Sequence record: DRR378314_1792
DNA: 64,000 bases
Reading direction: 5' to 3' (one strand)
The notes under the pieces are model-generated. The model was not told the origin of the DNA, searched no databases, and was given only the letters and a program-made list of their open reading frames with translations. Below, piece after piece: positions 34,541 to 37,500 of the stretch; positions within the stretch are counted from its first letter, which is position 1; each line of letters begins with the position of its first letter. Made by a program: the position numbers and the translations under genes.

Positions 34541-37500
34541 TTAGCTGTCACCAGAAGTCCCAGAACTCTCCTTGTCTGTGTCCTCGTCAGTGTCTTCTTC
34601 GCGGCTGTCTTCTCCGCTGACGCCAGGCTGGTGGGGATCATCTTCAAGCTCAATAATCACACCGCCCACGTCGCCCTCATCCTCTGGCGCTGATTGTTCA
34701 GCGAACCATGGGATGAATGCACCCTCTCGTTGCGAGCGAGGTAGAAAAAAATTGTCCCAAAACCGGCCCGGCATTAGCACCGGCAGCAAACCCCAGAATA
34801 TATTTGGCTGGGCCATCATAAGTCCTAGAAACGCTTCCCCCAGGAAAAAAGCCCGCTTAAACCGGATAGATTCGCCAGCATTTGCCCCATAAACTACTGA
34901 AGTCACGAAAATATCCAATACCTGCCACATATAATAGGATGTCCAGGCGAGCGCGACACCAGTTCCATATTGATGGCTAAGGTCCCGGTTTCGAAAAGGC
35001 GTGACCATGACCCTTGCGCCGATCAGATTGCTTAAAGCGACGGCAACGGGCGTTGAAGTTCCGCCGCGCACCAGGTTCTTCTTATAAAATTCGTTGGAAC
35101 AGGAAAAGAGATGATAAGGGTGATTGCAACCAGGGACCCCGATAAATGCCAATAATGGGCCGAGATAGGTCACTGCAACGGCCGTTGCAATCATGATCCT
35201 GTGACCCACCACCGCCCAGGTCGGATAATAAGAAGCCATTGGATTGTCCGGCTCGTTCGCCATTCGGCGGTTGAAGACATGAAATGCCCCGGTTAGACCG
35301 ACAGTTGTCCCGAACCAAATGCCAATTCCCAATGTCCACCGAAAAGCTTCATCAATCTCATATCCGAAGATCAAGAAGTAAGCGGGTAGGAAACACAGAA
35401 AACTGGATAACACCACTGTAATCGTCAGCCCAAGTTCGTTCAGACTGCGGCCATAGTTATCCCGAAGTCGCTGCCGCAGGTTCGGGTATGGACACATCCC
35501 GTTATCATCAACAAAATTAATGGGATCCGCCGGATAGGCATAAAGGTCCAGACCAACACGCAAGGGATCAGGCGATAAGAATTTCTGCACCGCCGGACAA
35601 TAGGTTCGCGCACCTGCAGAATATAGGTTTAACAGCGGTTGGTAGATCATACCGGCATACACACAGTCAAAACTGATCTGGCCTGTGGTTCTTACCAGGT
35701 CAATCTCTCCAAACGGTGTATGTTCGACGCGGCAGAGTTGATTGCCGCCCTCATCCGTTGCCAGTACGGTGCTGCCTTGAAAATTCGAATGCAAATAGAC
35801 AATACCGTCTGTCCGGGGTGTGAACTGAAGGGTGTTGGATACTGCTAAAATGGGTTTTGACGGCAGGGTTGAAGTGTTCGCGGCCCGCTCTTTAGTCAAT
35901 TCTGCGACGACCCCAAAACCACCCGGCACTTTGATGGTGCCCATTTCCGAGCCATCCGGATAGCGCGTAATCTGAAAATCGTGATCAACGTGAATTTCAT
36001 CAAAAATATCAGTTCCCATTCGCCGAATAAGTTGGCCGCGCAAATCATATTCATTCTGAATTTCTATTATGCTGTCGCTGGTTTTTTTTTGGCACCTGGA
36101 CAGGTGTCCAAAATCGGAGTGGGCCATTTCGTACGCCGCCTTACCCACACGAAGCTGTGTGCAATACCCCCCTTTATCCACCAGCATGTGTGACGGCGTG
36201 TCAACAGGATCGACCGCATTGGTTTGCAACCGCCCGAACCGGTCATATTCAAAATGATCTGAGATATCGGCAAAGCCGTCCCCACTTACCTGCAGCCGGC
36301 TTAATTGACCGGGCATGTCAGGTGAATAAAGATATTGGCCGTCATAATGCATCGCCTGCTGGCCCGGTTTTTGCCGAAAGATCTGATGTGATCGGGGCTG
36401 TCCCCGTTCATCCTGTTTTCGATACTCAACAATCCCGTTCCCATAGGTCGTTCGAACTGGAATTCCCCGGCTATCATGCCCCTCCAGCCGAACGAGTGGC
36501 TTTTTTTCGGTTAGATCGGTGGCAGTTCTGAGAAACCCCCGCCCATCATATTCAAAACCAATTTTCCGCCCATCAGGATAGGTTCGCATTTTCACCTGAC
36601 CATTGGACCATAAATCGGTCTTAAGCAGAAACTCATCACCCTGCTTCTCATGGATTAACTGACGCTCCAGCACGTGCCCCGTTAAATCCGTTGTCTCCGT
36701 AATTTGCCAACCCTCTGGGGATGTCATTTTGGTCCGGCAGGTTCCTGCTTTCGGGTCTTCCCTATAGTTAAAATAATGGGACAGGGATTTGCCCTTTTGA
36801 TCCAGGCTTTTTCTGCAGGTAATACGGCCCAACCAGTCGTAATGATAAGTCTCCGTCGTCTCGTTGTGTCTGTAAAAATTCAGCCGCAGATCACTGCCGA
36901 TTACCTTATTGATCTTGCCAATAACCGGATTGGTTTCCGAAATACAGTTTCCTAAAAAATCCCATTCATACCAAGTTTGACTACCATTGCGATCTGTCTT
37001 TTGGAGCAACCTACCCAACAGGTCATAAGTCTCGACGGTCGATCCTTTATCAAATTGCTGCCGCGTTTTCAAAACACCTGTGGCCGAGAGGGTCCGGATT
37101 GTTGTCTGATGCGCTATTCCTTTGACGTTTTTACGTTGCTCCGTCACGGTGAGAGCTACCTTATCTGCCGTGCCGTATGTCATTTCTGTCGTTGATCCAT
37201 CTGGCGACTGGACCCGCTTCTCCAATCCCAGTTTGGTATACTGAATTTCTTGCCATTGAAGTCGTTTTACTTTCAGATGTTTCAATTTCCCGGTCAACTC
37301 AGAGAGCCTGCTTTTCAGCTCAAACGGCATGGATTGTGCTGCAGTGGAATTGGCGCTGTCGTAGCGCAAAATGACAAGTTGCCAATAATTTGGCGCAATC
37401 TCGAGACCTTTTAACAGGGGTCGGGACCAATGATCCTGAAACTCCACTGACCGCAAACGCTCATGCTGATTACCAACCGGTTGGGTGATCACCTGGACCA

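Follow-up and report, generated by a model that had tools for sequence, protein, structure and literature searches.

A predicted six-helix membrane domain behind the autoprotease site of an Rhs/YD-repeat protein family from Sneathiellales

Introduction

Rhs cages are known mainly as holders of soluble enzyme toxins, and the proteins SGS1 and Tse5 raise the question of how such a shell might hold and then release transmembrane (TM) helices. The same question is raised by a gene in a 64,000-nucleotide stretch of sequence record DRR378314_1792 (hereafter the window; positions are those of the whole stretch). This gene (34541..39271, minus strand) has a longest open reading frame (ORF) of 1576 codons, as taken from an ORF list with translations, and codes for an Rhs/YD-repeat protein whose C-terminal cargo was proposed, in a preliminary description of the DNA, to be a multi-pass membrane domain. 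Is there such a domain behind the Rhs core, and if so, what might it be doing there?

Three lines of evidence, namely a structure model, hydropathy and a charge bias found throughout the protein family, support the presence of a polytopic helical membrane-type domain after the core. By analogy with SGS1 and Tse5 we tentatively favor, at a little under an even chance, the idea that the protein is a stowed membrane effector, in which a self-contained Rhs/YD cage would carry a membrane-insertion module as its passenger and leave an acidic tail exposed. The preliminary description had also thought the concept undescribed. This part has to be given up, as parts of two published reports already present a pore-forming cargo in an Rhs cage (Tse5; PMC10684867) and TM helices in a related shell (SGS1; PMC9935623).

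An Rhs core with an invariant autoprotease triad

Judged from its sequence, the protein is an Rhs/YD-repeat protein with an Rhs-associated core, since repeats, core motif and catalytic residues are all present. The shell spans about residues 47-1184 and its YD repeats match TIGR01643 of NCBIfam (E 2.7e-9). The best-scoring RHS/YD repeat (residues 749-782; 36926..37027, minus) matches PF05593 at E 1.8e-13, and the same Pfam family is matched by 9/9 members. The Rhs-associated core (residues 1185-1259; 35495..35719, minus) matches TIGR03696 (E 5.5e-12; 46 bits, compared to a cut-off of 32.5) and ends in PINFVDDNGM, which follows the pattern P-x-x-x-x-D-x-x-G-(L/M). A profile built from nine full-length relatives matches the solved shells of Tse15, a Photorhabdus Rhs protein, Tse5, teneurin-like proteins, TccC3 and YenC2, and these shell matches in the PDB end at profile position 1259-1260.

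Near the other end of the protein, a plug-like motif (FYVNKRTAEAHF...GLRPSLSLEYQS...GW; 38975..39133, minus) resembles the N-terminus of TcB/SpvB. Its conserved columns in the family alignment are F47, Y79, S81, G94, W95 and G99, and the Pfam SpvB family gives a weak match in 3/9 members (best E 0.0015). No signal peptide was seen in the N-terminus of any family member, Pfam scans and inspection of the N-termini revealed no PAAR or VgrG domain in any of them, and the Pfam scans of members likewise returned no propeller family. The true start is likely to be M24 (ATG, 39202-39200), which would give a protein of 1553 amino acids (aa). We take this codon as the real start because M24 is an invariant alignment column at which the N-termini of the family begin, and because an AAGGAG box lies ~8 nt 5' of its ATG.

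Alignment to TccC3, TccC2, RHS2 and SGS4 places the aspartyl autoprotease residues at R1222 (35606-35608), D1235 (35567-35569) and D1255 (35507-35509), all on the minus strand. Each is invariant in 9/9 aligned full-length members, and together they fall in the R/D/D columns of TccC3, TccC2 and RHS2, the Arg column having been picked out with the residue numbering of YenC2. Passages of the SGS1 report state that autoproteolysis needs one Arg and two Asp residues, and name Asp674 of a Tc toxin (PMC9935623). For Tse5, sections of the structural report describe the constructs D1141A and D1164A and place cleavage between L1168 and I1169 (PMC10684867). The D-x-x-G-L spacing at this Tse5 site equals the spacing at the site examined here.

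Because the autoprotease residues are conserved, the cleavage beside DDNG expected in the preliminary description is plausible, although the predicted site lies one residue past the boundary drawn there. In the alignment M1259 stands opposite the final residue of the cleaved TccC2 chain (6l7i_G, which ends ...DENGL), and on this basis the scissile bond is predicted to be M1259/C1260 (35492..35497, minus). M1259 also aligns with the Leu of DPDGL in TccC3. The P1' residue, C1260 (35492-35494), is invariant in 13/13 aligned members and in 5 further proteins, 18 examined in all. We know of no conserved residue just after the scissile bond in canonical Rhs and TcC proteins. Lipidation, thioester chemistry, a disulfide and metal binding can be named as options for the role of C1260.

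A six-helix bundle is predicted after the cleavage site

The motif PINFVDDNG begins at residue 1250 and is followed by 318 residues, running from position 35497 down to 34541 of the window with the stop codon included, so that the earlier count of 318 codons for this segment (34541-35497, minus) is exact. After the predicted scissile bond, the cargo comprises 317 residues (35.4 kDa). Since AlphaFold2 gave a poor model from the single cargo sequence (predicted local distance difference test, pLDDT, 46.8), we used an AlphaFold2 model based on a 13-sequence alignment (A2), which has a mean pLDDT of 79.6 and a predicted template modeling score (pTM) of 0.73. This model contains six helices of 22-32 residues, a bundle that is confidently predicted and arranged as three helical hairpins. 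In cargo numbering, helices 1-6 are residues 21-43, 48-79, 93-119, 135-164, 173-202 and 207-228 (35369-35437, 35261-35356, 35141-35221, 35006-35095, 34892-34981 and 34814-34879, respectively; minus). The predicted membrane domain as a whole covers residues 1260-1523 (34703..35494, minus; 29.8 kDa, isoelectric point (pI) 9.25), with ~20 residues between the cleavage site and helix 1 in the model. The six hydrophobic segments listed in the preliminary description are all present and coincide with these six long helices.

Hydropathy was assessed on the Kyte-Doolittle scale with a 19-residue window and a threshold of 1.6. Only two regions of the protein pass this threshold, and these are helices 1 and 3; no window exceeds 1.6 in the 1249 residues upstream of PINFVDDNG. 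The other four helices are moderately hydrophobic (best windows 0.87-1.27), and helices 4-6 are amphipathic (0.87-1.04). The distribution of charge adds to this picture. Lys and Arg residues number 9-19 on the face formed by the N-terminus, the loops between helices 2-3 and 4-5 and the segment after helix 6, versus 0-2 on the face formed by the loops between helices 1-2, 3-4 and 5-6, and this holds for 12/12 members. On the K/R-poor face the loops comprise just 4, 15 and 4 residues and are either acidic or without charge. This family-wide bias provides support beyond chance for a six-segment topology.

A strict positive-inside pattern of this kind is also what would be expected if the protein were a resident membrane protein of the producer cell. 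In that case, the six helices would be inserted co-translationally by the signal recognition particle (SRP)/Sec/YidC route into the cell's own inner membrane with both termini inside (N-in/C-in), shell and acidic tail would remain on the cytoplasmic face, and the role would be cell-autonomous, with no export. We consider this explanation, the main rival of a stowed effector, unlikely, although it deserves serious weight, and the trans loops, which contain acidic residues as well as a Cys pair that most members conserve, also speak for it. The pair belongs to the CNHPYHLFSC loop between helices 3 and 4 (35099..35128, minus), which is present as reported earlier and lies on the K/R-poor, acidic side. 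Its residues C124 and C133 are conserved in at least 90% of the 13 aligned members; the pair is missing from the helix 3-4 loop at loci L101, L102 and L103.

Conserved motifs run through the cargo (NYGR, FGY(D/E), RW, WF, LGPxxxFIG, RG, WQxxD, KxxFxxGE and PNxxWxxxP). Across 13 members 22 cargo columns are invariant, including R53, W54, D195, K214, P231 and N232, and E221 is invariant among six cargo-only sequences. Behind the bundle lies an acidic low-complexity C-terminal tail of 53 aa (34544..34702, minus; pI 4.05), in which pLDDT is <50 from cargo residue 265 onward. The last 60 residues contain 8-24 Asp and Glu residues across 12 members. Among 17 members the cargo is 302-445 aa long and differs mostly in the tail, which implies that the tail, if nothing else, has to sit outside the shell.

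What kind of domain might this be? No family in Pfam or NCBIfam matches the cargo, Tox-SGS included, which agrees with the earlier statement that no enzyme motif is visible, and PDB sequences gave no match to either the single sequence or a profile. A Pfam hit to Cation_ATPase_C (E 0.014 in 1/6 members) was dismissed. The preliminary description had looked to an AlphaFold model for the fold; the model proved confident, but Foldseek found nothing in the PDB at E 0.001 or better. The mitochondrial carrier (SLC25) fold is a six-helix barrel with three homologous two-helix repeats. In VIA-align the best rows were mitochondrial carrier and TIM17/22/23-type helical bundles with Z <=9.7, which is within the helical background, and no fold was therefore assigned. 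These rows include UCP1 (Z 9.7, root-mean-square deviation 4.4 over 195 residues) and the ADP/ATP carrier (Z 6.6), both below the background that the tool states for helical models, and a ciliate carrier-like subunit (Z 9.7). A search of the cargo for an internal three-fold, SLC25-like repeat detected none (hhalign probabilities 0.2-0.5). The top ESM Atlas feature (0.77), a fungal WTF meiotic-driver cluster, fell under that tool's lead threshold and was set aside. As far as sequence comparison goes, the cargo is an undescribed domain family within a described kind of architecture.

The cargo is conserved on a rapidly diverging shell

An exhaustive HMMER scan of 1.84 billion representative proteins yielded 12 matches to the cargo. 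Eight of these are Rhs proteins of 1534-1670 aa and three are contig-truncated fragments; 11 of the 12 sit at the C-terminus of the same diverged Rhs type, and the twelfth is a 265-aa remnant. Every match with an organism name comes from Sneathiella or Sneathiellales (4/10 clusters looked up, plus S. glossodoripedis). A scan of a genome collection gave three loci, all in Sneathiella, and among the 79 loci kept from a metagenome scan the cargo was matched in L004 and L005 alone, the others being generic Rhs cores. Within the order Sneathiellales 11/39 genomes match, one of them through a deletion remnant, and a sample of 401 Alphaproteobacteria genomes returned only three known Sneathiellales carriers and one marginal match (E 0.0089, 53 positions). 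In a profile search of candidates that share words with the query, proteins of 174-692 aa included no stand-alone or otherwise fused cargo, and those of 693-2000 aa included just three matches, all family-type Rhs proteins. By these searches, the family is found only in Sneathiellales.

The preliminary description had raised the possibility that the cargo is swapped among Rhs cores. We observe the reverse, since the cargo is confined to one shell lineage of its own and has diverged less than that shell. In 36/36 pairs identity is higher in the cargo than in the shell, and shell and cargo distances correlate (r 0.51, reached by 29/5000 permutations). All 12 shells of the clade bear this cargo, and an unrelated cargo, that of locus L088, sits on an outgroup shell (61-84 bits, versus 228-1731 within the family). 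The usual logic of polymorphic toxins is thus broken in this family, wherein the cargo is conserved and the shell diverges fast.

Ratios of nonsynonymous to synonymous substitution rates (dN/dS) were obtained for two close pairs of loci. For L003/L105 the values are 0.23 for the shell, 0.10 for the cargo and 0.35 for the tail, compared to 0.00-0.09 for six neighboring genes. For L102/L103 (Rhs genes at 3845-9127 and 3320-8530, respectively) they are 0.24, 1.17 and 0.46, compared to 0.01-0.06 for four neighbors. Taken over the family, no part of the protein is more conserved or more constrained than the six-helix bundle. The synonymous rate (dS) of the Rhs gene in L102/L103 is 0.26, lower than that of four flanking genes (0.52-0.74), and the otherwise conserved SPDP and PN motifs are altered in L103. 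Together with the cargo dN/dS, this suggests that the gene was recently exchanged and that evolution of its cargo has since been relaxed or diversifying.

A positional ortholog occupies the same locus in 5/11 other loci (L001, L002, L004, L005 and L097), where the order is gshB, ComM, tetratricopeptide repeat (TPR) protein, Rhs, SIMPL, epimerase and TetR, then argH and lysA. The Rhs protein is far more diverged than its surroundings, with 27-28% identity to that of the window versus 39-91% for the neighbors. In detail, neighbors are 52-91% identical at L001 (16 genes; Rhs 28%), 48-90% at L004 (10 genes; Rhs 28%), 40-87% at L005 (8 genes; Rhs 27%) and 39-79% at L002 (6 genes; Rhs 27%). The closest relative seen (P0011/L097; G008:C1:902490-905801, about 1039-1560), with neighbors 74-86% identical to those in the window, has a 265-aa in-frame fusion of the first ~150 Rhs residues to the last ~110 cargo residues. 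This internal-deletion remnant is annotated as hypothetical in Sneathiella limimaris. At L005, one in-frame TAG (8224-8226) lies mid-shell in an otherwise full-length gene, which could reflect a pseudogene, a sequencing error or read-through.

Given the dN/dS values, patchy presence, remnant and in-frame TAG, the gene is constrained yet fast-evolving, dispensable and sometimes decaying. Could it then be no more than a relic of this lineage, decaying or without function, with a hydrophobic C-terminus that serves no specific role? The same patchiness, the deletion in the closest relative, the TAG, the high cargo dN/dS of L102/L103 and the low identity of the Rhs gene relative to its neighbors would all be in keeping with this explanation. 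However, intact ORFs of 1534-1775 codons are found in many diverged genomes, dN/dS is only 0.10-0.24 for the cargo and shell of L003/L105 and the shell of L102/L103, and invariant cargo columns as numerous as those noted above accompany a confident fold prediction. We consequently regard a relic as highly improbable.

Neighboring genes offer no general immunity partner

Two genes near the Rhs gene might be considered as immunity genes. Downstream lies a gene for a periplasmic SIMPL/DUF541 protein that carries a signal peptide (33754..34467, minus; PF04402), and no terminator-like site was found in the short spacer between the two. Farther on is a hydrophobic ORF of 129 aa (31851-32240, minus), with a 4-nt overlap at the stop codon of the TetR gene. 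It is 47-61% conserved at syntenic loci, and in Pfam only a glycerophosphodiester phosphodiesterase membrane domain gave a hint, with a sub-threshold score. The divergent upstream neighbor is a TPR protein (39339..40109, plus; Pfam TPR families) that marks the conserved locus and is 66-86% identical in L001, L002, L004, L005 and L097.

These genes bear on a third explanation, in which the protein would be a conventional antibacterial polymorphic Rhs toxin, delivered by contact and countered by the SIMPL or the 129-aa membrane protein as immunity protein. The architecture of an Rhs core plus a C-terminal domain invites this comparison, as does the SIMPL gene itself, which is not separated by a terminator and, at 40-53% identity, is among the most diverged neighbors. 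In addition, the separate Rhs gene at L088 has a small multi-TM ORF directly downstream. However, a variable cargo on a conserved shell is the opposite of what we see. Furthermore, the SIMPL gene is kept at syntenic loci alone, and both it and the 129-aa ORF are missing from the flanks of 6/6 loci in other contexts, so that neither is accepted as a general immunity partner. On present evidence, the SIMPL gene is not part of the system. The six other loci are spread over four other contexts, and no neighbor within 3 kb is shared between the five genomic contexts.

Delivery genes were sought in three carrier genomes, which are relatives of the window. TssC (PF05943) and PAAR (PF05488) were matched in 0/3, with both controls positive, and VRP1 (PF03538, TcA) was also matched in 0/3, with a control that was positive nowhere. 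Combined with N-termini that carry no PAAR domain, VgrG domain or signal peptide, the TssC and PAAR results leave a conventional toxin very unlikely. More generally, the protein is probably not a kin-directed polymorphic antibacterial toxin, because the cargo is unexchanged, there is no conserved immunity-like partner, and no type VI secretion system (T6SS) was found in the carriers searched.

Two other Rhs genes came to our attention in these genomes. L088 (G003:C11:30500-44500; gene 5479-11145, minus) is the second Rhs of a Sneathiella genome and codes for 1888 aa with a clear signal peptide. Its DPVNFVDRDGR motif is followed by 526 aa that include several hydrophobic segments and a tail rich in acidic and Ser residues. 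Immediately downstream is a 183-aa ORF (4788-5339, minus), also with several hydrophobic segments, that is possibly an immunity protein. Homology between the cargo described here and the hydrophobic cargo of L088 was rejected (hhalign probability 0.1). The other gene, L089 (G001:C11:760000-772000; 7071-8471), is an orphan Rhs core plus C-terminal fragment of 268 aa beside recA in S. glossodoripedis. Its RHS domain leads into YDPTTGRY...DPIG...NPVNYVNPDGK, and the protein ends in a charged tail. A 197-aa ORF follows, and the whole has the look of a conventional orphan toxin/immunity module.

Base composition varies along the Rhs gene of the window. G+C is 0.44-0.48 in its 5' two-thirds (36500-39000), versus ~0.50-0.51 in the cargo region, and the flanking housekeeping genes (0.50-0.55) lie above the 5' two-thirds as well.

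Stowed effector or resident membrane protein?

If the protein is a stowed membrane effector, its workings might be as follows. After autocleavage, the hydrophobic helices would stay stowed on the inner wall of the shell and the protein would be kept soluble, as in the analogous cases of SGS1 and Tse5. The variable acidic tail would exit the shell, like the segment that follows the TM helices of SGS1. Upon some trigger, the hairpins would come out of the shell and enter a membrane from the side on which the basic loops stay, and the inserted domain might be a channel, a pore or some other membrane effector. The invariant triad, the short lead to helix 1 and the two published precedents speak for this reading. 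In addition, the portions of the reports that treat solved Rhs, Tc and SGS1 structures describe the post-core chain as pointing into the cavity (PMC9935623, PMC10684867).

Several observations weigh against this reading, and the first of these concerns space. Protein occupies ~1.21 cubic angstrom per Da. At this value the whole cargo would take up ~43,000 cubic angstrom and its helical part ~36,000. As given in part of the Tse5 report, the cavities of stand-alone shells measure 32,000-35,000 cubic angstrom (Tse5 ~32,000, RhsA 32,200, Rhs1 35,000) and hold cargos of 15-16 kDa (PMC10684867). Solved stand-alone Rhs proteins likewise carry 110-250 post-core residues, versus 317 here behind a shell of <=1236 residues. 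Second, basic loops of the cytoplasmic type together with short acidic trans loops make up the pattern of a normal inner-membrane protein. Third, no export route is visible, given the lack of a signal peptide in the family and of TssC or PAAR in the three carriers. Fourth, constraint on the cargo is uneven across the family, as seen in L102/L103. A resident inner-membrane domain would account just as well for the charge pattern and for the missing export route and immunity partner.

Further evidence for a resident domain is the position of the orthologs in a housekeeping locus under purifying selection, the absence of any neighbor shared between the five contexts, and a cargo that seems too large for full encapsulation and whose tail length is unconstrained. 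Nevertheless, an invariant autoprotease triad is hard to explain for a mere anchor, and in solved structures the chain beyond the core runs into the cavity. In this protein only a short lead separates the cleavage site from helix 1. The gene is also dispensable, given how few genomes of the order carry it intact. Slightly more doubtful still is the specific proposal that a resident N-in/C-in domain tethers the self-cleaving Rhs cage, or hands something over, on the cytoplasmic face. To our knowledge, no function has been assigned to a cytoplasmic Rhs cage, and we know of no Rhs/YD shell with a cell-autonomous, membrane-docked role. If the proposal were true, the protein would be a cell-autonomous Rhs compartment docked at the membrane, and not an exported toxin. 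With a conserved cargo, and with no immunity gene or known secretion system to go with it, the family would represent either a different use of the cage or an unknown export route.

Comparison with known Rhs/YD systems

Teneurins are anchored in the membrane by one N-terminal helix. They and the teneurin-like proteins of bacteria (PDB 9pt5, 9ifo, 7bam) share the YD shell with the family described here (profile E 4e-16), and feature an internal plug, a C-terminal region that leads out through a shell opening, and an association with membranes. As stated in a passage of the SGS1 report, teneurins are without the last catalytic Asp and do not cleave themselves (PMC9935623).

In single-sequence searches, the Rhs core is matched best by TccC3, TccC2, YenC2 and RHS2, which are TcC subunits of Tc toxins (E 0.00027-0.0012). 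The catalytic columns are common to both, the N-terminal motif here is TcB/SpvB-like, and Tc cargos, at ~276-282 residues after the core, are of similar size. Tc cargos, however, are soluble enzymes. In Tc toxins TcB and TcC jointly form the cocoon, which contains ~2150 residues and docks on TcA, whereas the shell described here is part of a single chain and has no detected beta-propeller.

Tse5 operates in a polymorphic-toxin setting with an immunity gene. This Pseudomonas aeruginosa protein (RhsP1; PDB 8cp6; PMC10684867, PMC9637101) is described as a stand-alone Rhs cage that encloses a 16-kDa pore-forming fragment (PMC10684867). Both proteins appear as stand-alone cages with an autocleavage site after D-x-x-G-L and a hydrophobic, non-enzymatic C-terminal fragment that inserts, or here is proposed to insert, into membranes, and the shells are homologous (family profile E 1.4e-22). 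The differences are that the cargo here is roughly twice as large as Tse5-CT (16 kDa, 149 aa), and that Tse5 is a T6SS effector, whereas the three carrier genomes gave no match to a T6SS sheath or PAAR gene. PDB sequence searches gave no similarity between the cargos, though the extent of Tse5-CT in the deposited chain is uncertain.

The closest match in layout is SGS1 of mosquito saliva. As described in parts of its structural report, SGS1 has six predicted TM helices (~230 aa) inside the shell directly after the protease site; these are highly conserved between species, and the next segment exits via a mid-opening of the shell wall (PMC9935623). Those same parts note no classical signal peptide, and a thought origin in bacterial endosymbionts (PMC9935623). 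Each protein thus combines an Rhs/YD shell, an Arg/Asp/Asp autoprotease, six predicted TM helices right after it and an additional C-terminal stretch. In SGS1 as in the protein here, the helices are highly conserved among species and a classical signal peptide is lacking. The core also matches the SGS4 (E 0.0011) and SGS1 (E 0.056) chains. In contrast, the cargo shows no similarity to SGS chains at E up to 10, whether as a single sequence or as a profile. SGS1 has 3364 aa, with beta-propellers, lectin/carbohydrate-binding module (CBM) receptor domains and Tox-SGS, whereas the protein here has 1553-1576 aa and amounts to a bare shell plus an acidic tail around its cargo. SGS1 is eukaryotic and secreted in saliva, and the gene here is bacterial and chromosomal. 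The family thus looks like the SGS1 layout in miniature, without a detectable sequence relation. As a minimal bacterial version, it offers one ~1550-residue chain with no receptor domains, a confidently predicted cargo fold and clear motifs, and its origin in a non-pathogenic marine genus makes cleavage, stowage, release and insertion directly testable.

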